Assembly (NCBI GenBank): GCA_964429815.1
Contig: CAYSCM010000001.1
Coordinates: 32,001 to 96,000 of the forward strand
DNA: 64,000 bases
Origin: an uncultured Candidatus Saccharibacteria bacterium
GTDB taxonomy: Bacteria > Patescibacteriota > Minisyncoccia > Phycocordibacterales > CAYSCM01
Direction: 5' to 3'
Shown here in pieces: positions 31,247 through 64,000 of this stretch (the stretch's first letter is position 1; each line of letters begins with the position of its first letter). The notes under the pieces are model-generated. The model was not told where the DNA came from, searched no databases, and saw only the letters and a program-made list of their open reading frames with translations. Both the position numbers and the translations under genes were made by a program.

Positions 31247-32251
31247 TTATTCCCTCCTCTGAGCCGCCTCTACCATTTCTTCGACTAGTTCCTTGAAGGA
31301 AATCTTTGGCTCCCATTCGAGCTCCTCAGCAATTTTTGCGTTGTCTCCACGGCGCGGATACATTTCCGCAGGGCGATAGAACTCGCTCGCCACGCGCACA
31401 CGCACAGTACCGGACGGGTCCACTCCGACCTCATATTGCCCTTCCGCTTTCCACGCGATATCCATACCAAGACGTTTCGCAGCTATTTCGATAAACTCCC
31501 GTACGGTATGGGCCCTGCCAGAGGCTATGACGTAGGACTCCGCCCTATCGTGCTGCAGGGTCTTCCAAACGGCTTGGACGACGTCTCTGGCGTGTGACCA
31601 ATCGCGCCTCACATCGAGATTCCCTATCCGCAACTCCTGCTCTTTCCCCAGAGAAATGCGCGCGAGCGTCGTCGCTATTTTTTGGGTCACGAATTCCCTT
31701 CCACGACGAGGACTCTCGTGATTAAAAAGAATTCCAGACACGGAAAAAATATGGTGGTCACGCCGATATGCCTCGATAAGGTTATGCGCAGCTGTTTTTC
31801 CGACGCCGTAGGGGTTGCAGGGCCGAAAGGGCGTATTCTCATTTTGCGGGCTTTCTGACGCTTCGCCGTACATTTCTGCCGATGATGCTTGGAACAGTCT
31901 CGATCCAGGCAAAAATTCTCGCATCGCCTCGAGGATAGTGAGGGGAACGAACGCAGTGCTCTCAAGGGTTTTGCGCGGGTTCTCCCAGGGGTTTGCCACC
32001 GTGCTCACCGAGGCAAGATTATATATTTCATCGGGACAGACGACTTTGAGCTGTTCGCGTAAAAAGTGAGAGTCGGTCACATCCCCTGCGGAGAGCGCGA
32101 CCCCGGTAACGTCTTTAAGATTTTCCTTCGTCGAACCTGCGCGTTCAATGCCGAACACCCGATATCCCTTTTGAAGCAAAAGTTCGGCCAAGTAGGAACC
32201 GTCTTGGCCGCCGATCCCCGTGATAAGGGCTGTTGTTGCCTTCTCTCTCAT
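31247..32251 (-). CDS. GDP-mannose 4,6-dehydratase paralogue (divergent catalytic motifs)
   Basis: ALITGIGGQDGSYLAELLL and GILFNHESPRRG motifs, but SSAEMYG and NPYGVGK replace the canonical TSE and Y-AxAK contexts. Confidence 0.7.
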   Translation of the reverse strand: MREKATTALITGIGGQDGSYLAELLLQKGYRVFGIERAGSTKENLKDVTGVALSAGDVTDSHFLREQLKVVCPDEIYNLASVSTVANPWENPRKTLESTAFVPLTILEAMREFLPGSRLFQASSAEMYGEASESPQNENTPFRPCNPYGVGKTAAHNLIEAYRRDHHIFSVSGILFNHESPRRGREFVTQKIATTLARISLGKEQELRIGNLDVRRDWSHARDVVQAVWKTLQHDRAESYVIASGRAHTVREFIEIAAKRLGMDIAWKAEGQYEVGVDPSGTVRVRVASEFYRPAEMYPRRGDNAKIAEELEWEPKISFKELVEEMVEAAQRRE

Positions 32252-41718: not shown

Positions 41719-42498
41719 TTATTCAATGATCTCGTACTCGGCCGCTTCGGCTGACACTGAAATGCTCGAGTCGTGTTTTCGGCGCGCAAGGTATACAGCG
41801 CCTGCGCCGAGCGCTAGCACGGTGCCGAGCGCGAGCCACCACAGGTACGGGGAGTGTTGTTCCTCCCCAGTAGCCACGAACCCCGGCTTCGGGGTCAGTG
41901 CGCTCTCTACAACGCCCGGGGGTGGCTCGAGGTTGGCGGGCTTTCGCGACGCTTTTTGTGTAATCACATTTGGGGAAGAAGGAGCGGTTTTTGCTGTCGG
42001 GATATCGGCTTGCGCGAGTGCCCGACCTGGAGAAGGTTTCGCGGCGATGAAGCCTCCGAGGGTGCGTGAGAGCGAAAGTCCGTCCCCTGCCGCGCCAAGC
42101 GCGTGTGTGTACGTGACCGAATCGAGCGTCGAGCTTCCGCTCAAAAGCGCGATTGTTTCGCCGGTATTCGAGAGCGAAAACGAGCTATCAAAAAGCGCCC
42201 CGGTGTAAGATGGGTTGTCGGCCAAAAATTTCGCCGGATCGGCGGCGATGACCGCATACACCCCCGAAGCCAGAACAGACGTACCGGACGCTTTGAGAGT
42301 GTGTCTGACTCCACCCTCGAGCAGCCTGAGGGTCGTAAGGTCGACGGGTCCGCCTCCCCCGTTGTATACCTCGATCCACTCGCGGCCATCATCGGCACCA
42401 GGGAGGTCATAGAGCACCTCGCTGATAGAGACCTGCGCGAAAAGCGGTAGTGGAGCGACGAGGAGCCCGATAAGCGCGCTAGTTCGAGTCATCAGCAA
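41719..42498 (-). CDS. lamin-tail-domain (LTD) protein with signal peptide and C-terminal membrane anchor
   Basis: ISEVLYDLPGADDGREWIEVYNGG is the LTD signature. N-terminal hydrophobic leader and C-terminal YLWWLALGTVLALGAGAVYL helix. Confidence 0.7.
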   Translation of the reverse strand: MLMTRTSALIGLLVAPLPLFAQVSISEVLYDLPGADDGREWIEVYNGGGGPVDLTTLRLLEGGVRHTLKASGTSVLASGVYAVIAADPAKFLADNPSYTGALFDSSFSLSNTGETIALLSGSSTLDSVTYTHALGAAGDGLSLSRTLGGFIAAKPSPGRALAQADIPTAKTAPSSPNVITQKASRKPANLEPPPGVVESALTPKPGFVATGEEQHSPYLWWLALGTVLALGAGAVYLARRKHDSSISVSAEAAEYEIIE

Positions 42499-44260
42499 GC
42501 ATTTTTCGAAGCTCTTCGGGTGAGGGTTCGCCCGTATGCTGTTGTGTCGGAGTCGCTTCGTTGGTCAATTCTTTCGATGATTCCCCCTTTCGTTCCTCCT
42601 GGGCTCGAGCGCGCTCAGCCATAGCCTTTGCGAGTGCATCGCGCAGTGCATTGTTTTGTTTCGGAGTCTCCGGCTGCGCCTGCTCCCTTTTATCTTTCTT
42701 TTCGAGCTCTTTCCCGGCCACCTGGCGTAGCGTCTCGCGAAGTTTCGCAAGATGGTCTCCTGTCGACTGCTGCGGGCGAGAAGATATCTGTGAAGGAACT
42801 CCCGTGGAAGGAGGAGGTGCTCTTCTCTCCTCACGGCGGGTATCAGCTCCGCGCTCAGGGCGCGCTTCAGCATTACGATGTTCGCGGGGACGAGATCCCC
42901 CGTTGCGGTCTCGGGAGGAAACGCCCGCTCCGGCAGGAGCCGTCGATGGTCGCAGGGGTTCCACCGGTTCATGCCACTTGGCAATATCCCGCTCGACATC
43001 AGCACGTGGGCGAGCAAATTGCTGGCGCGACATCGCAAGGATTTCTTGCTTAAAGGAGCGCGTGGGTGCCTCAATTGGCGGAAGAGTTACGGCAGAAAAG
43101 GGCGGCGAGCCGACGCCGTCGATCATGAGTGAGAGGTATATCTGGCGAAGACCAAGGTTGACGATATCCTCTGCAGTAAATTTTGGCGCAAAAACTTTCT
43201 CCAGGAGCTCCGCATCGAGTGGACCCACTCGAAAGGCGATAGTGGTGCCAACGTTGCCAAACACCGCATCGCGCACCTCCTCTTCCATTTGTTCCACATA
43301 TTGATGTGCGATGGTGAGGGAGAGCCTATATTTGCGGGCCTCGGCAAGAATATCCGCAAAGGATGCATTCGCAAACGACTGAAACTCGTCTACGTAAAAA
43401 TAGAGACTGGGGAGTTTGGCCTGTGTTGCGGCGGAAGTATCTGCGCGGCTCATGGCGGCCAAATAGATGCGCGTGGTGAGCATAGAACCAAGAAGTGCTG
43501 TGTTTGTCTCCCCCACTAAGCCCTTGGAGAGATTCATGATGATGATTTTTTTCTCATCCATCAATTTACGCAAGTCAAAAGAAGATTTGGACTGTCCGAT
43601 GATGTTGCGAATAAGGGGGTTGGAGCTGTACTGCCCCACCTTGTTCTGAATTGCAGGGGTTGCTTCTGCTGCGAAGCGCTCAGTGTACTTGGCAAATTCA
43701 TTGACCCAAAACGCTTTCACTGATGGGTCGGAAATGTTAGCGACAACTCGATCTCGATAGGGTTTATCCGAGAGCATGCGGTTCACCGCAAGGAGCGTTG
43801 TGTCTGGATATTCCAAAAGTGCCAAGAGTGTATTGGTAAGGATGTATTCCATGCGGGCGCTCCAGGTGTCTGGGCCCCACACTTTTTTAAAGGCACTCAT
43901 AAGTCCCGAGGCGACGAAGTGTCTTCGCGCTGGACCCACATCTTCCATCACGTTGAAGGCCACCGGGTAGTCGGTATCAAACGGCGCGAAATAGAGCACG
44001 TCTTTCACACGCTCGGCCGGAATATAGTCGAGAAGTTTTTCAGCCGTGCCACCGTGCGGATCGATAAAGGCAAGTCCCTCACCATTCATAATGTCCTGGA
44101 TGGCCATGTTCTCGAGAAGAGTCGACTTACCCATGCCCGTTTTACCGATGACATAGACGTGCCGTGAGCGGTCTTTGGCTTTGATGCCAAAGGGGGTGCG
44201 CTTGCCGCGTGAGTCGGTAACAGCAAAATACGTTATCCTCTCGTCGGGATTCATCTTCAT
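42479..44260 (-). CDS. soluble VirD4/TraG/TraD-like (type IV coupling protein-like) P-loop ATPase with a disordered R/E/P-rich tail
   Basis: Walker A VIGKTGMGKST and Walker B-like FYVDEFQSF. The last roughly 170 aa are low-complexity. No N-terminal TM segments. Confidence 0.55.
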   Translation of the reverse strand: MKMNPDERITYFAVTDSRGKRTPFGIKAKDRSRHVYVIGKTGMGKSTLLENMAIQDIMNGEGLAFIDPHGGTAEKLLDYIPAERVKDVLYFAPFDTDYPVAFNVMEDVGPARRHFVASGLMSAFKKVWGPDTWSARMEYILTNTLLALLEYPDTTLLAVNRMLSDKPYRDRVVANISDPSVKAFWVNEFAKYTERFAAEATPAIQNKVGQYSSNPLIRNIIGQSKSSFDLRKLMDEKKIIIMNLSKGLVGETNTALLGSMLTTRIYLAAMSRADTSAATQAKLPSLYFYVDEFQSFANASFADILAEARKYRLSLTIAHQYVEQMEEEVRDAVFGNVGTTIAFRVGPLDAELLEKVFAPKFTAEDIVNLGLRQIYLSLMIDGVGSPPFSAVTLPPIEAPTRSFKQEILAMSRQQFARPRADVERDIAKWHEPVEPLRPSTAPAGAGVSSRDRNGGSRPREHRNAEARPERGADTRREERRAPPPSTGVPSQISSRPQQSTGDHLAKLRETLRQVAGKELEKKDKREQAQPETPKQNNALRDALAKAMAERARAQEERKGESSKELTNEATPTQQHTGEPSPEELRKMLADDSN

Positions 44261-44338
44261 GAGTATAGCAATTTTGCCGCCATCGCGATGCAAAAAGCCC
44301 CGCACTCTTTTGCGGGGCTTCCAGGTGTACGGCTTCGA

Positions 44339-44554
44339 TCAATGAACGCTGACCGGCTCGAGATCGTGGCTTTTCACGGCCTGGAACGCTGTGTCACGGT
44401 CGCTGATGATCGCGAGTTGGGTCCCGTCTGCCGCGTGGACGGAGAATGCGCGCTCACCATTTTCAACGACCGGCTTGATGTAGGCCACCCTATTTAGCAT
44501 CCACACCTGCCACTCAGCCTGCGTCAGGGGCCTGTAGATGGTGTCGGTTTTCAT
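44339..44554 (-). CDS. DUF1150-family small protein
   Basis: VAYIKPV...FSVHAADGTQLAIISDRDTAFQAVKSHDLEPVSVH matches the DUF1150 pattern from memory. SD GAGGTG at 44559-44564. Confidence 0.6.
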   Translation of the reverse strand: MKTDTIYRPLTQAEWQVWMLNRVAYIKPVVENGERAFSVHAADGTQLAIISDRDTAFQAVKSHDLEPVSVH

Positions 44555-44619
44555 GGCACACCTCGTCGTCGCTACCTTCAGTAGACCAGATATCCGATTT
44601 CACGCAATTGCGTTACGCA

Positions 44620-45975
44620 CTACTGTGCCGCTGTCGTCGAAGCCGCTGGTTCACGCGCCAACACCGTGCGCAAGCTCGTGTACTTGTTCGCGGCATCCCA
44701 GATGAGGTACGAGTTCAGGCCGGAGTCGAGGTTTGCTTGTATCTGCTCCTTCACCATGTCAGGCGTGTAGGTGACGGGGTAGTCAAACGATTGGAGCCAG
44801 GGGCGAATGATGGAAGCGGGATAGGCCGGCTTTGAGTACAGACCGCTCGCCAATTCCCTGGTCGTCGTGGGAGTCGTCGTCCCCGCCACTTCCACGGTTT
44901 TCATGATGGGCGTGTAGGCCATCGAAAAGAGCTCGGTGGTGGTCGCCATCGCCCGTGCGACTGCCGAGTCGAGAGAGACTCTAACCACCTTGTACGGGTC
45001 CGAGTTGACGTTTTTAAGTCCAACAAAGCCGCTGTTGTAGTGGGAAGGGTAGACCATTGGGTCTATGAAGTCGAAGTAGGGCATCGCGCGCTCGAGAACC
45101 TGTCCGATACCGAGGTCGTCGACGTGGACCGTCACATAGCCGAAGAGATCGGCGGACATAACGGCGCCGATCTGCTTTACGTGAGCGTGCAAATATTGGA
45201 AAAACTCCTCGAGCGCCTGCGCCTTGGTCTTCCCCTCGTCGAGCATATAAACCGCATCCGCCATAGGACCATCCGAGGGGAAGCGAATGTAATCGAAGTT
45301 AAGCTCGTCGAAGCCCATCTCCTCGTACGAGACTTTGCTCAGTTCGACGATGTAGTCCCAAAACGGTTTCGCGCCGACGTCGACAAACGAGAGTCCTCCA
45401 TAGTTTTTCCAAATCCCTCCCTTTTTGCTTTGCACCGCGAGATCGGGATGCTCCTTCGTGTAGGTGGGGTCTTGGAAGACAGTAATGCGGCCGATGACGT
45501 AAATGCCCTTGTCGTGCAGGTTTTTAACGAACGACTTCATGTCGGCCGCACCGCACGCTTTCGAGACATTATCCCGGAGGAGTGAGCTATCGGTCGGAAA
45601 GGCGATGCCGCCGGAGTAGTCCTTTATGTCAATGACGATTGCGTTGAGTTCGGTCCTGTCGATGAGCCCCAGAAGGTCTTTGCGGAACGAGGGCGTACCC
45701 GCCGCGCACTGGCTCATGTAGATGGCCTTCACGGGGTCCGGGGTCGGCACATGGGTGATCGAGGGGTGTTGCACGATGGTGGTCGTGGCCGCCGAGGTCG
45801 AGCTGGCGAGCGTGGCATTGTGATAAGACGTTTCAATAGCGGCCGGAATGCCGAAAAAGGCCGCCGCGGCCACGCCGGAGAGAAGAAGCCCAAGATAGGC
45901 TCCCCGGATAAGCCCCAAGGGCTGTTTTTTAGGAGCGCGCATCGACGCCAGGGCGTTCACGCATCGCGCTGTCAC
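44620..45975 (-). CDS. membrane-anchored putative glycoside hydrolase (DUF4015/GHL-type TIM barrel)
   Basis: NAIVIDIKDYSGGIAFP, GRITVFQDP and GFDELNFDYIRFPSDG motifs, with an N-terminal TM helix. Confidence 0.55.
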   Translation of the reverse strand: MTARCVNALASMRAPKKQPLGLIRGAYLGLLLSGVAAAAFFGIPAAIETSYHNATLASSTSAATTTIVQHPSITHVPTPDPVKAIYMSQCAAGTPSFRKDLLGLIDRTELNAIVIDIKDYSGGIAFPTDSSLLRDNVSKACGAADMKSFVKNLHDKGIYVIGRITVFQDPTYTKEHPDLAVQSKKGGIWKNYGGLSFVDVGAKPFWDYIVELSKVSYEEMGFDELNFDYIRFPSDGPMADAVYMLDEGKTKAQALEEFFQYLHAHVKQIGAVMSADLFGYVTVHVDDLGIGQVLERAMPYFDFIDPMVYPSHYNSGFVGLKNVNSDPYKVVRVSLDSAVARAMATTTELFSMAYTPIMKTVEVAGTTTPTTTRELASGLYSKPAYPASIIRPWLQSFDYPVTYTPDMVKEQIQANLDSGLNSYLIWDAANKYTSLRTVLAREPAASTTAAQ

Positions 45976-46129
45976 GACTGCGTCCCTCCTGCCGCAAGGC
46001 GAACGCGAGGGCGGCTACCAGTAATCCGAAGAGCACGTAGAGCGGGGTCTTCCAGGGGGTCGGAACGCCCACGAACGGCAAGAGAGCGACGAGGAGAGCG
46101 AACAGAATGATGGTGGCATGTTTGGACAT
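45929..46129 (-). CDS. small membrane protein (hypothetical)
   Basis: 66 aa from MSKHATIILFALLVALLPFVG, with two hydrophobic helices. Overlaps the start of the next gene. Confidence 0.4.
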   Translation of the reverse strand: MSKHATIILFALLVALLPFVGVPTPWKTPLYVLFGLLVAALAFALRQEGRSRDSAMRERPGVDARS

Positions 46130-46243
46130 GCGCACAGTATACCCTATAAGCACTGACCTAAGCGGGAACGAAGGTTCATTCCTGCATTTCACCCAAACCA
46201 GAGGGTCTTGAAGGGTCTGGAGGGGTTAGTGCTTGGGTATACC

Positions 46244-46927
46244 CTATGTACCTTCGACCATGACGACGAATTCACCCCGCACCGTATCGGGATTTTCCGC
46301 AAAGTGGGATTCGATCTCCGAAACGGTGCCCACCAGCGTCTCCTCGTACACCTTGGTGAGCTCGCGCGCGACCGCAATGCGCCGGGTTGGCGGGAGATGC
46401 GCCCTGAGCGACGCGAGGGTTTTCATAATGCGGTGCGGGGATTCATAGAAGACAACGACGCGAGATGAAGCGGCTATTTCCCTAAAGAGGGTTTCTCTCC
46501 CTTTTTTGTGGGGCAAAAAACCCAAGAAAGTAAATTCAGATACCGGAAATCCAGACGTTGAGAGAGCCGCAATCGCCGCGTTTGGTCCCGGAATGGCAAT
46601 AATTTTTACCTCAGGGAGCTTTTCGCGGATAAGAGCAACGAGACGAGAGCCTGGATCTGAAATTCCTGGAGTTCCTGCATCCGAAACAAGTGCCGCGCTC
46701 TTTTCCTCCGTGAGGGCGTCGAGAATTTCTCCGTGGCGTTTATCGGAGGCATGCGCGTTATAAGAAAGCATAGGCTTTTTGAGACCATATTCGTGGAGAA
46801 GCTTGCCGGTCACTCGTGTGTCTTCGCATACGACAATATCGACCTCAGAGAGTACTCGCAGCGCCCGCGAGGTAATATCCTCGAGATTACCGATGGGGGT
46901 CGCGACGATGTAGAGCATGACGGCCAT
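46244..46927 (-). CDS. rsmI: 16S rRNA (cytidine1402-2'-O)-methyltransferase
   Basis: LYIVATPIGNLEDITSRALRVL...VVCEDTR tetrapyrrole-methylase-fold signature. Confidence 0.85.
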   Translation of the reverse strand: MAVMLYIVATPIGNLEDITSRALRVLSEVDIVVCEDTRVTGKLLHEYGLKKPMLSYNAHASDKRHGEILDALTEEKSAALVSDAGTPGISDPGSRLVALIREKLPEVKIIAIPGPNAAIAALSTSGFPVSEFTFLGFLPHKKGRETLFREIAASSRVVVFYESPHRIMKTLASLRAHLPPTRRIAVARELTKVYEETLVGTVSEIESHFAENPDTVRGEFVVMVEGT

Positions 46928-47006
46928 GGCATGAACCTACCACAATTTGCCGAAGCTCGGAAAAGGGGTTTAATGGGTAACGGAACGGTGCAAAAAGGAG
47001 TTCGCA

Positions 47007-47231
47007 ATGCCGAGAAAAAAGCTCGAGGACATGCTTAATGCCACTGCGGAAGATTGGGCGAAGATCCCCCCCGATCCGGATGGACGCCGTATGGTATCCG
47101 TATCCGGCCCTCTCGAGGGGGATCTTCTCAGCGCCGCTCATGCCGCGCTTCATCACGGCGTCGGTCTCAAAGCCAGGACGAAAGAGGCAAAACTCTCTAT
47201 GCATGAGAACGTGTCCGAGCAGGACAAATAA
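47007..47231 (+). CDS. hypothetical small protein
   Basis: 74 aa. SD AAGGAG lies 7 nt upstream, and a terminator follows directly. Confidence 0.45.
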   Translation: MPRKKLEDMLNATAEDWAKIPPDPDGRRMVSVSGPLEGDLLSAAHAALHHGVGLKARTKEAKLSMHENVSEQDK

Positions 47232-47245
47232 CGCCTGCGCCCCAG

Positions 47246-47277
47246 GACGCCCGCCACAAACGGGCGTCTATTTTTTT
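47246..47277. terminator. bidirectional terminator between convergent genes
   Basis: GACGCCCG ccacaaa CGGGCGTC followed by TATTTTTTT. Confidence 0.65.
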
Positions 47278-47810
47278 GGAAAAATCGCCATACGGCGCCA
47301 GTCCAGAAAGAATGCCGGGAGAGGAACAAAATAGTTTTTGAGAGCATCCTTCTCCGAACCGGCGGGGTCGTGATAGAAAAAACCTGCGATTTCCCCGCCC
47401 TCACCCTCTCGAACCCCCACTAAAAGTACCTGATGGAATTTACGTTGATCCCAGAGGCGTAGTTGTGTCGAAATTATAACAGGATTCCCTATCTTAATGG
47501 CATTGCGAATCTGTGTGATATCGCGCTCGGACATCTGCTCTTTTCGCTCACATCCAAAACCAAATCTTTGTATAAGCGAGACCGAATAGTCATGTATCCA
47601 CCCCGAATCGCCGTAGCCTCCTTCCCTCATACCCCGTGCAATGAGTTCATCGAGACTCGGCAATTTTGCACCAAAGTACGCAAGCGCCATGTATACACAG
47701 GTCATCCCGCAGGAAAAAATACGTGAGTCAGGATTTTTGACGTCACGATACTGGGAATAGTAGGGAACTTCGAGAATCGTATCCGTGAAGGTTATCTGTC
47801 GGGTCATCAT
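47268..47810 (-). CDS. peptidase C39-like (papain-fold) domain protein
   Basis: VPYYSQYRD...SCGMTCVYMALAYFG with a downstream His region, typical of the C39_2 family. Confidence 0.6.
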   Translation of the reverse strand: MMTRQITFTDTILEVPYYSQYRDVKNPDSRIFSCGMTCVYMALAYFGAKLPSLDELIARGMREGGYGDSGWIHDYSVSLIQRFGFGCERKEQMSERDITQIRNAIKIGNPVIISTQLRLWDQRKFHQVLLVGVREGEGGEIAGFFYHDPAGSEKDALKNYFVPLPAFFLDWRRMAIFPKK

Positions 47811-47817
47811 GGTTGTA

Positions 47818-48282
47818 TTACGAAGTTAGAAATGGGTGGATATAAATAGCTGCCACCTTACGAACAGGATTACCCTCCGCCTGTGCCGCGTAATGTAGAG
47901 GATGTTCAATCGGGATGCGATATTCGAAACGGCTGCTGACGGCGGTCTTTTCGTTGAGCACAAAACCGTTGTGCTCATGCATTTCCTCATCTCTCTGTTT
48001 TATTTTTTCCCAAAGAACGACAGCTCCAGGGACTGGTTTATCCGTTGTGGTCCATCCTGATGCTTCCATATCCCGTGTCGTGCCCGAGACTGTGGCATGA
48101 ACTTCCTTAAGCAACTTGAAGTGGTACAGGATTGAAGAAACAAAATAAGCGCAAGAAACATCACCGTCGCGCAAGATGTCCTCCTTCTTGCCATCCACCT
48201 CCGCATAAAGAGTGCGAAAAAGGTTCGAACCGACCGAGTTGCGGATCATCGCGAGGTAGGTGTCCTTCAATAAAAATTTCAT
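47818..48282 (-). CDS. hypothetical protein with possible Cys/His papain-like (NlpC/P60- or CHAP-like) motifs
   Basis: SCAYFVSSILY and HEHNGFVL motifs; the function is a guess. Confidence 0.45.
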   Translation of the reverse strand: MKFLLKDTYLAMIRNSVGSNLFRTLYAEVDGKKEDILRDGDVSCAYFVSSILYHFKLLKEVHATVSGTTRDMEASGWTTTDKPVPGAVVLWEKIKQRDEEMHEHNGFVLNEKTAVSSRFEYRIPIEHPLHYAAQAEGNPVRKVAAIYIHPFLTS

Positions 48283-48310
48283 TTCCCGATACTACTTTAT
48301 TTTACTGAGG

Positions 48311-48392
48311 TGGGCGAGGGGAGAGTTGAACTCCCAATCCTTGCGGAATACGCTTCTGAGGCGTACGTGTATACCAATTCCACCACTCGCCC
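48311..48392 (-). tRNA. tRNA-Leu (anticodon CAG), class II with long variable arm
   Basis: Hand-folded. Acceptor GGGCGAG/CTCGCCC. Anticodon stem TACGC/GCGTA with loop CTCAGAA. Variable arm TCC-GCAA-GGA. T arm GGGAG-TTCAACT-CTCCC. No encoded CCA. Confidence 0.9.
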
Positions 48393-48544
48393 GTCTGTTC
48401 CATCCTACTCAAATATGAAAACGGGTCTAGCCGACATCAGACCGCGTGGGTCTCATTTAAAGGCGCCATCAATCCGATTTAAGCCTTCGACACACTGTTC
48501 TGTCAGCCGACTGGCGAGGGGCGGAAAAGCTGTACCGTCCTGTG

Positions 48545-48616
48545 TGCGAGTGGAAGGAATCGAACCTTCGACCTCTGTCTTATCAGGACAGCGTTCTACC
48601 ACTGAACTACACTCGC
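48545..48616 (-). tRNA. tRNA-Ile (anticodon GAU)
   Basis: Hand-folded. Acceptor GCGAGTG/CACTCGC. D arm GTTC/GAAC. Anticodon stem CTGTC/GACAG with loop CTGATAA. T arm GAAGG-TTCGATT-CCTTC. No encoded CCA. Confidence 0.9.
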
Positions 48617-48923
48617 AATGAGGTGGATACTAGCAAGAGAGCGCCTCCCTATCAACAGCTCCCCCTTCATGCGGGGTGCGTTTGGTCGGTACAATGATGG
48701 TGGTTCCAGTAGAAAGGAGAGAACCTTTGTGCGGTTGGTCACGACGTACACTCAAACGGGATCGCGGTCGTAGCCGAGAAATTCGGTCAAAGCCCATCCA
48801 GGAGGAGCTTTCCCTGCTCACCCCGAATGTCTCACGTGTCCTTCCCGAAGCCACAGTCGCTCCACCGGCGAGTCGCTCCGCGCGGCTCCCCTCACAGCAG
48901 CGACTCGCTGAGCTCTATGCCGC

Positions 48924-48973
48924 AAGGAGGTGATCCAGTCGCGTAAGAGCCCTACCAAGGCGCTTACGACTAC
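48924..48973 (-). rRNA. orphan 16S rRNA 3'-terminal segment (AGTCGTAA, hairpin, CTGGATCACCTCCTT)
   Basis: Minus-strand sequence GTAGTCGTAAGCGCCTTGGTAGGGCTCTTACGCGACTGGATCACCTCCTT. 15-nt identity to the universal 16S end, followed by the ITS and tRNA-Ile. Confidence 0.7.
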
Positions 48974-49028
48974 CGTTTTCGAACGTTCTTTCTTTCAAGC
49001 GCGCCGCGTTAGCGGCGCGCTTTCTATT

Positions 49029-49057
49029 CAAAAAAAGACCCGCTCTCAGAGCGGGTC
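49029..49057 (-). terminator. rho-independent terminator of the small-membrane-protein operon
   Basis: GACCCGCT ctgag AGCGGGTC followed by TTTTTTT on the minus strand. A second 11-bp GC hairpin lies at 48997-49022. Confidence 0.7.
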
Positions 49058-49069
49058 AGGTACGGGGGG

Positions 49070-49477
49070 TTATGCATCGTCGCGGTGACATAGCCGCAGG
49101 AGCGCACTAACGATGAGGACAGCTCCGAGGACGACCGGGGTGAACGCGGCGTTGAGTTCCCTATGGATGCCTAACCGGAGACCAATGAAGGTGACGACGA
49201 GGCCACCGAAGAACAGGATCGCGCTTTTCTCCACGTACGGGCTCCAGATTCGACAGAGGATGCCGCGCCATCCTCCCGTCATGAGAGCGGAAGCTACCAC
49301 CCCCAAGCTGTAGGAGGGAAAAGAATCCGTTTCCCGAACGAGGGCGTGGACGAAAAGCATGAGCCCGAGGAGAAAGACAAACGTGCCGAGTCCGATGATA
49401 AGCCGAGCCACGATGGACTCGCGAAGAACGCGAGGACGACTCCAATCGTGAAAAAGCTTGGTGGAGCGTTGAGACAT
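49070..49477 (-). CDS. small integral membrane protein (hypothetical), about 135 aa
   Basis: Starts at MSQRSTKL with SD AGAAGGAGGG 7 nt upstream. Three to four TM-length hydrophobic segments. Confidence 0.55.
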   Translation of the reverse strand: MSQRSTKLFHDWSRPRVLRESIVARLIIGLGTFVFLLGLMLFVHALVRETDSFPSYSLGVVASALMTGGWRGILCRIWSPYVEKSAILFFGGLVVTFIGLRLGIHRELNAAFTPVVLGAVLIVSALLRLCHRDDA

Positions 49478-49561
49478 GGATGGACCCTCCTTCTTTCGTC
49501 GTGATACCACTCTTCCTGAGCCGCCGCAACCTGTGGAAAACCGTTACGCAAGAAGGCCGCC

Positions 49562-49771
49562 CTACGGGCGGCCTTGCGGCTTTTTCTCGGCGCGACAGAT
49601 AAAGACGCACAGTATCATAAGCGCGATCGCGATGATGATAAAGAGCGTCCCCGCCGGCAGCGCATGAACAGGTTTTCCGCGTTGGATGATGCCGCCGATG
49701 AGCGCGGCAAAGCCGGCACCGGCAAGAACGAGCGCGAAGAAAGCCGTTGTGAGATTCGCTGCCTTTTTCAT
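49562..49771 (-). CDS. small membrane protein (hypothetical), 69 aa
   Basis: MKKAANLTTAFFALVLAGAGFAALIGG... with two TM-length segments. ATGA overlap with the upstream mini-ORF. Confidence 0.5.
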   Translation of the reverse strand: MKKAANLTTAFFALVLAGAGFAALIGGIIQRGKPVHALPAGTLFIIIAIALMILCVFICRAEKKPQGRP

Positions 49772-49893
49772 GGGAGCCTCACGAGCGGTCCGTGGAAGTA
49801 GAGAAACACGTCGAGCGCCAAACTGAAAAAGAACAGGCTTAGCAGGATACGTTTCTTCCCGCTTGGGCCCGAGAACGCCTTGATGGGATGCAT
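49768..49893 (-). CDS. mini-ORF, 41 aa hydrophobic peptide (hypothetical)
   Basis: Own translation: MHPIKAFSGPSGKKRILLSLFFFSLALDVFLYFHGPLVRLP. SD GGGAGGG lies 6 nt upstream. Below the ORF-track cutoff. Confidence 0.4.
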   Translation of the reverse strand: MHPIKAFSGPSGKKRILLSLFFFSLALDVFLYFHGPLVRLP

Positions 49894-49996
49894 GCTAGCC
49901 CTCCCTGGTACCTTGGCACATCCTAGCTAAAGAGGCATGCCGGCGCAATCTAAGAAGAGCGCCGCCGGTGGTGCCGGCGGCGTCGTGTCCCCACGA

Positions 49997-50251
49997 TCAA
50001 GGGAAGGTTCGGTCGATGAACGAGCCGAAGTAGCCGACGCCGAAGCCGAGTCCGAGGTACTGGAGCGGTCGGAGCGGTGCCTCGAGCATGTTGACGGCAG
50101 CGTAGGCGCCGAGCATCCAGGCTATACCTACCGTGAGCGCCCCGGCGGCCACGCCGGTCGCAACGTCACGGTACCAAGAGGCCTGAGCGTCCCACATGTG
50201 GTCGAGGCGCTCGAGTCCAGTGCGATAGTTCCGTAGGGTTCCGTCGGGCAT
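49997..50251 (-). CDS. small membrane protein (hypothetical), 84 aa
   Basis: SD AAGGAGGTT at 50255-50263. Hydrophobic core VATGVAAGALTVGIAWMLGAYAAV and a second segment LGLGFGVGYFGSF. Confidence 0.55.
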   Translation of the reverse strand: MPDGTLRNYRTGLERLDHMWDAQASWYRDVATGVAAGALTVGIAWMLGAYAAVNMLEAPLRPLQYLGLGFGVGYFGSFIDRTFP

Positions 50252-50322
50252 AGGAACCTCCTTTCCTTTCCCGTCCCTGTTCTACCGAAGTTTTGCGCTC
50301 TACACAATGGCTTCCTCCCCAT

Positions 50323-50357
50323 GCGCAAAAAAGCCCCTTATAAGGGGCTTTTTTGCG
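50323..50357. terminator. strong bidirectional hairpin with A/T runs immediately after the 16S trailer stem
   Basis: CGCAAAAAAGCCCC ttataa GGGGCTTTTTTGCG. Confidence 0.6.
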
Positions 50358-50359
50358 TT

Positions 50360-50388
50360 GGTACCAGAGTCTCTTTTGTTCCGTTCAA
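50360..50388 (-). promoter_or_regulatory. 3' arm of the pre-16S processing stem (RNase III-type)
   Basis: Complementary to 51987-52015: 8 bp, a 2x2 internal loop, then 19 bp. Confidence 0.7.
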
Positions 50389-50516
50389 TATACCAGTACG
50401 CATTTCTGGAAAGCGAGCAGACTTTAAAGACATACTGCTATGGTCTACTTCCGTACTCGATCGAGATACAGAATATCGACCGGATAAGTCTTACCTTCCG
50501 AAGAAGGAGACAGTTC

Positions 50517-51981
<1,465 letters not shown>

Positions 51982-51986
51982 ATTCG

Positions 51987-52015
51987 TTGAACGGAACAAA
52001 AGAGAGGCTGGTACC
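51987..52015 (-). promoter_or_regulatory. 5' arm of the pre-16S processing stem
   Basis: GGTACCAGCCTCTCTTTTGTTCCGTTCAA on the minus strand, pairing with 50360-50388. Preceded in the leader by the SD-like AGAAGGAGGT. Confidence 0.7.
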
Positions 52016-52230
52016 TCCTTCTTGATTCCTTTTACCCGTCCGAGCCGCAAAGCGGTTAGGATTAGGGTTTTTTGATCAGACTACACCGCCCTGGTTGGCG
52101 GCTAATCTAGTTGAACAGATTTTGTCTGCTCGCACATAACGTTCTTTGATTATCAATGATCACTACCTCATTGGCCGTTCGCCTCAAGCGGATTAGGCCG
52201 AAACAAAAACCTGCCCAAGGCAGTGCAGAC

Positions 52231-52258
52231 AGTATACGCAGAATTTGATGGGTGTCAA
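52231..52258 (-). promoter_or_regulatory. candidate 16S promoter
   Basis: Minus-strand TTGACA (52258-52253), 16-nt spacer, TATACT (52236-52231). About 250 nt upstream of the 16S 5' end. Confidence 0.5.
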
Positions 52259-52386
52259 ATGAAGGTCGCTCGCACACATCTTTTTGGAAACACGCATAAA
52301 ATAGGGCTTATTTTTGCTCCGCTCGCGCCGTCGCTCTGTGCGAGGTTTCCAAAAAGAGAATGCTCGCTCAAACAGGAAATGTAAAA

Positions 52387-52989
52387 TCAGATTGCGCCAC
52401 TCTGTGGAGGTTTTTTATTGAGATGTTGCCCAAAGAACGCCAGAGCTGTGATCGTTGTGTTGGCAAAAATCAAATAAATCGGATAAATCAGGTTAGCAAT
52501 ATCGAATTTTGTAGTCGAGACGGCAGCTAGAATTGCAGCGACGGCAATCATTGCCCACCCGAGAACGTTTTCTGAATAGGGCTCTCGATATGTCTTGGCT
52601 ATTGTCGGAATAGTCGAAATCAGGTCAGCCAGTACCGCTAGAATGAGCGCTACGAGAGGTTGTTTTGTAATTTGCCACAAACCTATAGCGATTATTGCTA
52701 GAGCAAAACAAGTATAATCAAGTGCCCCGTATTTTCTGTACCCATAACCAGACAAAGCAACAACAAGAATAAGCGCAGTGTTAAAAGTTGTTGTTATCAA
52801 GATTATGATGGACCACGATGCGCCGGCACTGAACTGAGCGGCTATGGCAATAATTTGTAGCGTGGTCCAAAGAACAAATGAAATTATATTTGGCCGAGTC
52901 GTACCCTTTATCATGCTTCTGACATAGGGGAAAACAGAGGCAATCTGGATTATTCCAGCAATAATTCCAACTACCGCATGCCAATCCAT
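52387..52989 (-). CDS. polytopic integral membrane protein (hypothetical; faint PQ-loop-like flavour)
   Basis: 200 aa from MDWHAVVGIIAGIIQIASVF, hydrophobic throughout. The track's N-terminal extension overlaps secF and is rejected. Confidence 0.5.
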   Translation of the reverse strand: MDWHAVVGIIAGIIQIASVFPYVRSMIKGTTRPNIISFVLWTTLQIIAIAAQFSAGASWSIIILITTTFNTALILVVALSGYGYRKYGALDYTCFALAIIAIGLWQITKQPLVALILAVLADLISTIPTIAKTYREPYSENVLGWAMIAVAAILAAVSTTKFDIANLIYPIYLIFANTTITALAFFGQHLNKKPPQSGAI

Positions 52990-63449: not shown

Positions 63450-64000
63450 TCATTGTCAGAGAAATTTCACCTCCTTAAGATGCACTGAGCGTTGATTTTG
63501 GGACCTTAACTTGAGATCTAGGCTCTTCCCTTTTTGACCACCGGAGCTTAGCCCCCGGAGTCTAACTGCGTGGTAGTGGAGAACGGTATTTGGAGTTTGA
63601 TAGGATTGACGAGCTTTCGCCCTATTCAATCCTTCCAGTGCTCTACCCCCGTTCTATAAACCACACGCCAGCCCAAAAGCTGTTTCGGAGAGAACCAGCT
63701 ATTACCAGGTTCGATAAGCTTTTCACTCCAACCCACAAGTCATCCGAATGCGTTGAACGACATACCGGTTCGGGCCTCCCCACTCCTTTCGGAGTGGTTC
63801 ACCCTGCTCATGGGTAGCTCACCTGGCTTCGGGTCGTATACGCGCTACTTAGTCGCGCTATTCACACTCGCTTTCGCTACGGCTTCGTCCGACAAAGGAC
63901 TTAGCCTCGCAACGCGCATACACTCGCCGGCTCATTCTTCAATAGGCACGCGGTCACCCGGAAGGATAGAAGCACCCAAGACTAGCCGATGGGTCGTTGC

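Follow-up and report, generated by a model that had tools for sequence, protein, structure and literature searches.

This analysis concerns four small open reading frames (ORFs), here called the cassette, which lie between the 16S ribosomal RNA (rRNA) gene and the isoleucine transfer RNA (tRNA) gene on a contig deposited for an uncultured Candidatus Saccharibacteria bacterium, together with a second, isolated 16S-like 3' tail (the orphan tail) located beyond them. The window, that is, the whole stretch of DNA analysed, comprises 64,000 nucleotides (nt; positions 32,001 to 96,000 of contig CAYSCM010000001.1, assembly GCA_964429815.1), and its host is an ultra-small, Parcubacteria-type bacterium of the candidate phyla radiation (CPR). 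The order of features on the minus strand is 23S, 5S, about 9 kb of envelope genes, a promoter-like site, 16S, the cassette region, tRNA-Ile and tRNA-Leu (Table 1). The envelope genes between 5S and 16S end in SecD, SecF and a membrane protein of 200 amino acids (aa). The loci of relatives, designated below by L and a number, were obtained via SecF from genome and metagenome collections and gave nine further 16S 3' ends. These relatives are distant, with 16S genes 83-85% identical to that of the host, and the scans of both kinds of collection revealed no SecF above 62% identity, except for one partial match at 72%. The rRNA genes are unlinked, and the arrangement in which 23S-5S is separated from 16S by about 9 kb of envelope genes, SecDF among them, is kept in L003, L006, L009 and L010.

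The 16S gene ends at 50533-50519 in the tail TGGATTAATTCCAAT, which carries a substituted anti-Shine-Dalgarno (anti-SD) sequence. Helix 45 (h45) of the host ends in …GCUCGUGGAU, and the last 13 positions of the Rfam model, with the consensus tail GGAUcACCUCCUUu, align base for base and with high posterior to GGAUUAAUUCCAAU. Since the consensus tail is fully aligned to the host tail, the anti-SD appears to have been substituted (CCUCC to AUUCC) and not detached from the gene. When a 16S gene is called anti-SD-less if no CCUCC occurs within the 13-nt tail after h45, the gene in the window, with GGAUUAAUUCCAAU, belongs to this class, and the 3' ends of all nine relatives likewise continue from h45 into GGA(A/U)nAUUUC... 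without CCUCC. The host tail and those of the relatives agree in this with a subgroup of Parcubacteria without anti-SD (CCUCCU) in 16S rRNA, as described by Tsurumaki et al. (2022, PMC9297842). Loss of the ribosomal protein uL1 is reported to overlap with this subgroup. Judged by its alignment, the 16S gene is uninterrupted and complete without either the cassette or the orphan tail. At about 1.9 kb, the 16S gene of L004 (3621-5543) must include some 420 nt of inserted sequence; such insertions are typical of CPR rRNA genes, and this one is unrelated to the block in the window.

The gene is also enclosed in a unit of its own. Leader positions 52005-51987 pair with trailer positions 50388-50370 in a perfect helix of 19 base pairs (bp), and positions 52015-52008 pair with 50367-50360 over a further 8 bp, in both cases without G-U pairs. 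Contiguous-helix counts were used for such comparisons, while unrestricted RNA duplex energies, which allow huge loops, were dropped. An equivalent leader/trailer helix of 18-29 bp occurs in the seven relatives with a full 16S gene and shows compensatory differences, e.g., GGAAC/GUUCC versus GAGAC/GUCUC; in the window and in these seven relatives it closes 130-225 nt past h45, and a terminator hairpin always comes next. Such conservation identifies it, at the level of comparative sequence, as the classical pre-16S processing stem. With its promoter, leader/trailer helix and terminator, the 16S gene is predicted to be a closed transcription and processing unit. The cassette lies beyond both the processing helix and the terminator and hence outside the 16S precursor, and it is predicted to be insulated by terminators. 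Across the clade, the trailer retains two further features, a (G)GUCGAU motif about 50-60 nt past h45 and a hairpin rich in C and U, which the window has at 50511-50488. The 16S leader contains AAGGAGGU (52013-52020, minus strand) adjoining the processing helix; this sequence is complementary to trailer positions 50512-50501 (12 bp, two of them G-U) and to the orphan tail.

Independent Logan assemblies are 100% identical to the window, one contig spanning 50355-48583, and exact-protein look-ups returned matches solely from the same population (runs SRR12313479 and SRR12313482). The Logan short-read contigs stop exactly at the 34-nt palindrome 50324-50357, so that only the deposited long assembly connects the 16S trailer with the cassette. 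An assembly chimera was considered and rejected: for the tail, the spacer and the tRNA side by the identical Logan contigs, and on the trailer side by the leader/trailer complementarity, which ties the trailer to the host genome.

Table 1. Features of the 16S to tRNA-Leu region and of the corresponding slot in relatives (TM, transmembrane segment; GC, guanine plus cytosine content; LLR, log-likelihood ratio per codon)
Feature	Position	Strand	Description
23S	64000-61464	-	
5S	61021-60916	-	short, 106 nt
16S unit promoter-like site	52231-52258	-	TTGACA-16-TATACT, 11/12 matches
Pre-16S helix, leader strand	51987-52015	-	GGUACCAG..UCUCUUUUGUUCCGUUCAA
16S rRNA gene, complete	50519-51980	-	Rfam model positions 1-1533, high posterior to last base
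Pre-16S helix, trailer strand	50360-50388	-	pairs with leader
16S terminator	50324-50357	both	perfect 17+17 nt palindrome, T-runs on either side; bidirectional intrinsic; hairpin there in relatives too
ORF1	49997-50251	-	84 aa; one TM-like segment and Gly-rich C-terminal part; codon LLR 0.21; singleton
GC hairpin after ORF1	49960-49982	-	9 G-C pairs, weak T-run
ORF2	49768-49893	-	41 aa; one TM-like segment; codon LLR 0.066
ORF3	49562-49771	-	69 aa; two TM segments; basic C-terminus; codon LLR 0.187; singleton
GC hairpin after ORF3	49553-49575	unassigned	
ORF4	49070-49477	-	135 aa from ATG; 3-4 TM helices; codon LLR 0.161; singleton
Intrinsic terminator after ORF4	49030-49057	-	9 bp stem, T7
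GC hairpin without U-run	48999-49020	unassigned	
Orphan element like 16S 3' end	48924-48984	-	UCGAAAACGG, h45-like hairpin with foreign apex, exact CUGGAUCACCUCCUU
Structured non-coding spacer, orphan tail to tRNA-Ile promoter	48656-48923	-	GC 0.59; z = -2.3; all six frames negative
tRNA-Ile promoter-like site	48627-48655	-	TTGATA-17-TAGTAT with TG
tRNA-Ile(GAU)	48616-48544	-	conserved far border of slot
tRNA-Leu(CAG)	48392-48309	-	conserved far border of slot
Slot, L004			72-aa ORF, 1 TM
Slot, L008, L019, L020			103-aa ORF, 1 TM
Slot, L010			80-aa ORF, 1 TM; 502-aa gene on other strand
Slot, L016			31-aa ORF, 1 TM
Slot, L017			160-aa transglycosylase-like gene
Slot, L023			82-aa ORF, 2 TM

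Coding potential and Shine-Dalgarno motifs of the cassette

At least three of the four ORFs, namely ORF1, ORF3 and ORF4, look like real coding sequence. Under a codon log-likelihood trained on 39 long genes of the window, their scores (0.16-0.21 per codon) equal the mean of same-length pieces of real host genes (0.17 +/- 0.07), with ORF2 at the low end of the range of real genes. Among the six possible frames, the proposed one scores highest for each of the four ORFs, while a competing ORF of 149 aa in another frame (49161-49610) scores -0.19. The GC content of codon positions follows the order GC3 > GC1 > GC2 in each case, and an independent gene caller called all four on a Logan contig identical to the window. 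The longest reading of ORF4 begins at a GTG at 49510. The start of ORF3 overlaps the stop of ORF2 (ATGA), and because of this coupling overlap ORF2 is regarded as a probable gene.

Hydropathy indicates one, one, two and three to four TM-like segments in ORF1 to ORF4, respectively, and the products are predicted to be small integral membrane proteins. An AlphaFold model of ORF4, computed without an alignment, is a four-helix bundle (predicted local distance difference test, pLDDT, 66) with no fold match in the PDB at E < 0.5; the model of ORF1, one long helix, is uninformative. In a collection of 5.8 billion protein clusters, ORF1, ORF3 and ORF4 each matched nothing but themselves. ORF4 was also compared by full HMMER with 1.84 billion representatives, where the only matches were biased multi-stretch ones in very long proteins. 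Pfam, NCBIfam, PHROGs and PADLOC gave no significant family for the cassette ORFs, ORF3 reaching only a sub-threshold DUF202 match. No match to 48617-50360 was found by blastn among phages and plasmids, and viral contigs held neither a relative of ORF4 or ORF1 nor a copy of the orphan tail with its context.

Three of the four ORFs are preceded by Shine-Dalgarno (SD) motifs: AAGGAGGT before ORF1 (50263-50256), GGGAGGG before ORF2 (49905-49899) and AGAAGGAGGG before ORF4 (49494-49485). These matches are at least 5 nt long in three of the four cases and 7-8 nt long in two (binomial p ~0.02), and they are placed 4-8 nt before the ATG, which is the spacing selected by ribosome binding. The host is SD-poor. 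Counted generously, with the best SD over all starts in the first 30 codons, only 18% of 51 genes of the window have a match of at least 5 nt, versus 6% in internal controls, and 6% versus 2% have one of at least 6 nt. This scarcity fits the rule that genomes without anti-SD also lack SDs, as given by Amin et al. (2018, PMC6107228). The motif AAGGAGGT occurs seven times in the window versus 1.7 expected; three copies are ordinary in-frame Lys-Glu-Val codons, a further copy lies inside 23S (63469-63476) and another represents the complement of the orphan tail.

An earlier sequence-only reading of this DNA, made by a model, had described much of the above correctly. The four same-strand ORFs were recovered by the ORF scan and by the independent gene caller, the three good SDs and the ATGA overlap are present in the sequence, the hydrophobic stretches of TM length agree with hydropathy, and the strong hairpins on either side of the cassette correspond to the 17+17 nt palindrome, the terminator after ORF4 and the GC hairpin that follows it. 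The library scans bore out the statement that the cassette holds no mobility gene and no known protein family, and the codon-usage check that it had proposed came out in favour of coding for ORF1, ORF3 and ORF4, with the best frame for all four. The further claim of a self-contained operon is doubtful, as upstream of ORF1 no promoter reaches 9/12 matches and both ORF1 and ORF3 are succeeded by a GC hairpin.

The orphan tail and the variable slot

A perfect CTGGATCACCTCCTT occurs at 48938-48924 on the 16S strand, 308 nt upstream of tRNA-Ile, with about 1e-4 such occurrences expected by chance in the window. This 15-mer is preceded by an 11-bp hairpin whose base, GGUAGUCGUA / UACGCGACUGG, is similar to that of h45, GGUAGCCGUA / UGCGGCUGG, differing by a C-G to U-A exchange, and whose apex lacks the GGAA loop. 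Upstream of the hairpin, UCGAAAACGG resembles UCGUAACAAGG, and the match of AGTCGTAA at the h45 spacing has a post hoc p of ~6e-5. In an unconstrained test, however, the alignment of the pre-tail region to 16S was not significant (112-180 of 2000 shuffles), so that only the 15-mer is secure. The 61-nt element gave no match to small-subunit rRNA models at E <= 10, and its hairpin is no more stable than shuffled sequence. None of the relatives' loci has a copy of the orphan tail. As the whole clade lacks the canonical tail at about 15% 16S divergence, the orphan tail cannot be a neutral leftover of the clade ancestor; by this comparison, it would be either a recent arrival or under selection.

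The order of 16S, terminator, variable ORFs and tRNA-Ile, followed by tRNA-Leu where seen, is kept in the clade, and the tRNA-Ile/tRNA-Leu pair also ends the slot in L004, L016 and L017. The ORFs in the slots of the relatives are unrelated among themselves and to ORF1-4. Conserved borders with unconserved content point to a recombination-prone slot and not to a homing or transposing element. Strong SDs are also found in three of seven slot genes of the relatives. These genes, in the SD-poor relatives L008 (5728), L010 (9629) and L017 (15335), have the SDs GAGGAGGGAG, UAAGGAGA and AAAGGAGGG and good sigma-70-like promoters, which suggests that the slot tends to hold foreign-looking genes.

Searches for a mobile or spliced element were negative. 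No group I or II intron family was found at E <= 1 on either strand of 48000-52400, and wherever the junctions are placed, a U at the end of the 5' exon is never combined with a G at the end of the intron. As to an intervening sequence (IVS) of the RNase III type, the longest helix between 50560-50300 and 49035-48937 has 9 bp including four G-U pairs, short of the long stem expected. The scans of Pfam, NCBIfam, PHROGs and PADLOC gave no LAGLIDADG or GIY-YIG homing endonuclease and no 23S_rRNA_IVP ORF, and library scans of the block and its neighbours gave no integrase or recombinase family. The rRNA model does not continue past the block, as positions 1-1533 all align before it. No flanking direct repeat of at least 12 nt that could represent attachment (att) sites was detected, only the 5-nt TGGAT being shared by the two supposed junctions. 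A transposon was rejected as neither terminal inverted repeats nor a target duplication is present. By these features the block would be neither an intron nor part of the ribosome, and it seems to be no longer mobile.

The picture of a cassette nested between two 16S termini, which the sequence-only reading had proposed, is therefore only partly retained: the second 15-mer is real, but the 16S gene is complete and its processing helix closes before the cassette. Similarly, the cassette does sit at the position of the canonical 16S-to-tRNA-Ile spacer, but it is not embedded in an rRNA operon, being outside the processing helix, past the terminator and followed by a tRNA-Ile gene with its own promoter-like site. 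A selfish insertion at a conserved site is not supported, as there is no intron, IVS or transposon signature and unrelated small ORFs occupy the slot of every relative. The search for the same four-gene cassette beside the 16S gene elsewhere, run as that reading had advised, found only unrelated ORFs in the relatives' slots, ORF1, ORF3 and ORF4 being singletons. The suggested holin, toxin or transporter-accessory role is pure conjecture.

Origin of the block and competing explanations

The explanation we favour, to which we give about an even chance, is that of a lineage-specific gene islet in the slot, accompanied by a recombination scar from the rRNA locus of an SD-using donor; this history is one we infer from sequence features. 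The slot between the 16S terminator and the separately promoted tRNA-Ile/tRNA-Leu pair appears to differ in each sequenced relative, and in the window it would be filled by a block of about 1.66 kb (about 50322-48660) comprising the ORFs, a terminator, the 61-nt fragment of a 16S 3' end and about 270 nt of GC-rich spacer. The block, or at least its 3' part, may have entered by illegitimate or homology-assisted recombination with the rRNA locus of a donor whose base composition was similar to that of the host. The orphan tail would then be the scar of this event, and the SDs would be donor features that the host ribosome could not read by canonical pairing. Probably, expression of the genes is weak and depends on poor promoters or terminator read-through, and their products are presumed to be embedded in the membrane. 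Import from an SD-using donor is suggested by the SDs, the canonical tail, the singleton ORFs and the high GC of the non-coding parts of the block (0.56-0.65 versus 0.46-0.47 in the native leader and trailer).

Several observations weigh against this history. Foreign codon usage of the cassette was tested for and not found, as its synonymous codon usage matches the host mean (-1.149 versus -1.146 +/- 0.053), and composition gives no proof of import; if this usage reflects long residence, the intact SDs and tail are harder to explain as leftovers. GC-rich non-coding DNA occurs also at 44306-47267. The searches of phages, plasmids and viral contigs and the repeat scan revealed no donor, homologue, att repeat or integrase. 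A donor 16S end should follow 16S sequence and not ORFs, so more than one event would be needed. The flanks of the orphan element are perfect but its h45 apex is unrelated, a pattern that uniform decay would not give. Finally, the promoter scan upstream of ORF1 found no strong site there (none at 9/12 matches); by eye, weak promoter-like sequences with 7/12 matches can be recognized at 50307-50279 (TTGTGT-17-TAGAAC) and 49529-49501 (TTGCGG-17-TATCAC).

The ORFs may instead be non-functional, either decaying imports or ORFs that arose by chance in a GC-rich spacer, with little transcription and no translation in an anti-SD-less host, an explanation that we consider unlikely but the strongest of the competitors. 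The missing homologues of ORF1, ORF3 and ORF4, the lack of a 9/12 promoter upstream of ORF1, the terminators on both sides of the block, the weak coding score of ORF2 and the scant use of SDs by the host would all agree with it, and the 149-aa ORF demonstrates that long ORFs arise by chance at such GC content. However, that chance ORF scores far below ORF1, ORF3 and ORF4, each of which is in the best of six frames. The order GC3 > GC1 > GC2 in all four ORFs, the host-like synonymous codon usage, the clean TM segments, the ATG codons at SD-appropriate spacing and the ATGA coupling overlap likewise speak for genes.

Less probable again is a function of the orphan tail itself, in which the hairpin and the single-stranded GGAUCACCUCCUU would imitate an anti-SD, either in cis within read-through transcripts or in the form of a small RNA, and would control translation or stability by pairing with AAGGAGG(U/G) before ORF1, ORF2 and ORF4 and possibly with the 16S leader (52020-52013). 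The perfection of the 15-mer beside a non-canonical hairpin is in keeping with this, the ancient loss of the anti-SD in the clade excludes a neutral relic, and the tail has perfect complements of 8 nt at ORF1 and 7 nt at ORF4. Codon usage like that of the host would fit a cassette that has been resident for a long time, and moderate structure (z = -2.3) is seen in the spacer surrounding the tail. Nevertheless, no promoter is seen upstream of the element, a strong terminator stands just before it, and its absence from all relatives leaves it without comparative support. The stability of its hairpin is no better than that of shuffled sequence, the 4-8 nt spacing between SD and ATG is selected by ribosomes and is no need of such a regulator, and three of the six other copies of AAGGAGGT are ordinary Lys-Glu-Val codons.

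We give little credence to a lysis, holin-like or small-toxin module, in which the TM proteins would make the membrane permeable, perhaps in concert with the CHAP-like and C39-like hydrolases encoded past the tRNA genes. The layout of ORF3, with two TM segments and a charged C-terminus, resembles that of class II holins, ORF1 has a glycine-zipper-like stretch (GLGFGVGYFG), and for the genes downstream there are matches to Peptidase_C39_2 (5e-10), to CHAP (E = 0.0035) and to a family of PHROG endolysins (E = 0.0064), the latter two below curated significance. Yet no significant holin, toxin or phage family was recognized, phage genes nearby and viral contig matches are lacking, and two terminators, a promoter and two tRNAs stand between the cassette and the hydrolase genes, which also differ from it in GC content (0.475 versus 0.58). 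Very unlikely, in our estimate, is that the orphan element forms a genetically separate anti-SD module, serving as an alternative 16S 3' end via rare read-through or processing, or as a stand-alone anti-SD RNA; if it did, the few SD-led mRNAs, including the adjoining cassette, would be treated unlike the SD-less bulk.

A truly split 16S gene, with 1.58 kb removed from GGAU (50521) to the orphan CACCUCCUU, or with the tail as an alternative 3' end giving a canonical anti-SD, is in our view highly improbable: the tail does lie on the 16S strand, past 16S and before tRNA-Ile, where a 16S 3' end would sit, TGGAT is found at both junctions, strong SDs precede the cassette and a few host genes, and CPR 16S genes often have long insertions missing from the mature rRNA (PMC11270868), but the host tail is collinear with the entire canonical tail so that nothing is missing at the junction, in eight genomes the processing helix is already closed before the block, three terminator-like hairpins intervene, no intron model appears at E <= 1, no junction combines a 5' exon U with an intron G, the insert ends form a helix of at most 9 bp, nothing would keep a free 3' piece of 9-13 nt attached to the ribosome, such a tail is missing from all relatives and the genome is SD-poor.

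The hydrolase genes lie directly past the tRNAs (47268-48282, minus strand) and comprise a CHAP-like gene, sub-threshold, and a Peptidase_C39_2-like gene. They are not syntenic in the relatives and have the lowest GC content of the neighbourhood (0.475); the pair may be another accessory patch. Farther on, 42479-44305 (minus strand) holds a gene of about 605 aa with weak VirD4/TraG-type coupling-protein domains, and its neighbours are DUF1150 and DUF4015 genes and one for a lamin-tail-domain protein.

Relation to known systems and significance

In the canonical bacterial rRNA operon, 16S is followed by tRNA-Ile, tRNA-Ala and 23S. The window resembles it in having tRNA-Ile(GAU) past 16S on the same strand, and the orphan tail, about 300 nt of spacer and tRNA-Ile mimic the layout of a 16S end, spacer and tRNA; it differs in that 9 kb separate 16S from the 23S-5S genes upstream, 16S ends at a terminator of its own, the tRNAs have a separate promoter, and the former spacer is filled by protein genes. 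Genomic islets at the 3' ends of tRNA and transfer-messenger RNA genes leave a displaced 3' gene fragment, and here as well a displaced 3' fragment of a stable RNA marks the far end of a block of accessory genes. Unlike in such islets, no integrase was found and the repeats are limited to TGGAT, while the host tail and trailer are ancestral to the clade and not element-borne. ORF2 and ORF3 share size, TM content and charged termini with phage holins and type I toxins, but they lack a family match, phage context, an endolysin in the same unit and antisense RNA evidence.

The insertions reported in CPR rRNA genes interrupt the mature rRNA at sites that recur; over half of them resemble group I or II introns, and the proteins encoded are mostly LAGLIDADG or GIY-YIG endonucleases (Tsurumaki et al. 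2024, PMC11270868, and Brown et al. 2015 as cited there). The likeness is that extra, sometimes protein-coding DNA is found by a CPR 16S gene, and some published insertions also have no intron model or annotated ORFs, whereas in the window 16S is whole and the block, which shows neither intron model nor endonuclease and encodes TM proteins, lies beyond the helix and terminator. With the anti-SD-less Parcubacteria (PMC9297842; PMC6107228) the host shares the tail GGAUUAAUUCCAAU in place of GGAUCACCUCCUUU, SD-poor genes and the occurrence of the trait in its relatives; a separate perfect canonical tail, or SD-led genes clustered by 16S, is not described in the parts of these two papers considered here.

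The locus thus offers a simpler picture than protein genes inside an rRNA gene, in which the old 16S-to-tRNA-Ile spacer would serve as an insulated, fast-turnover slot for small lineage-specific membrane-protein genes. For annotation, it follows that a 16S-tail motif found downstream of a 16S gene should not be joined to the gene as an "insertion". The slot is also a mild pointer to where CPR genomes acquire new genes. Should the orphan tail prove to be more than the scar of a recombination, it would be relevant to how SD-bearing messages are handled in anti-SD-less bacteria.

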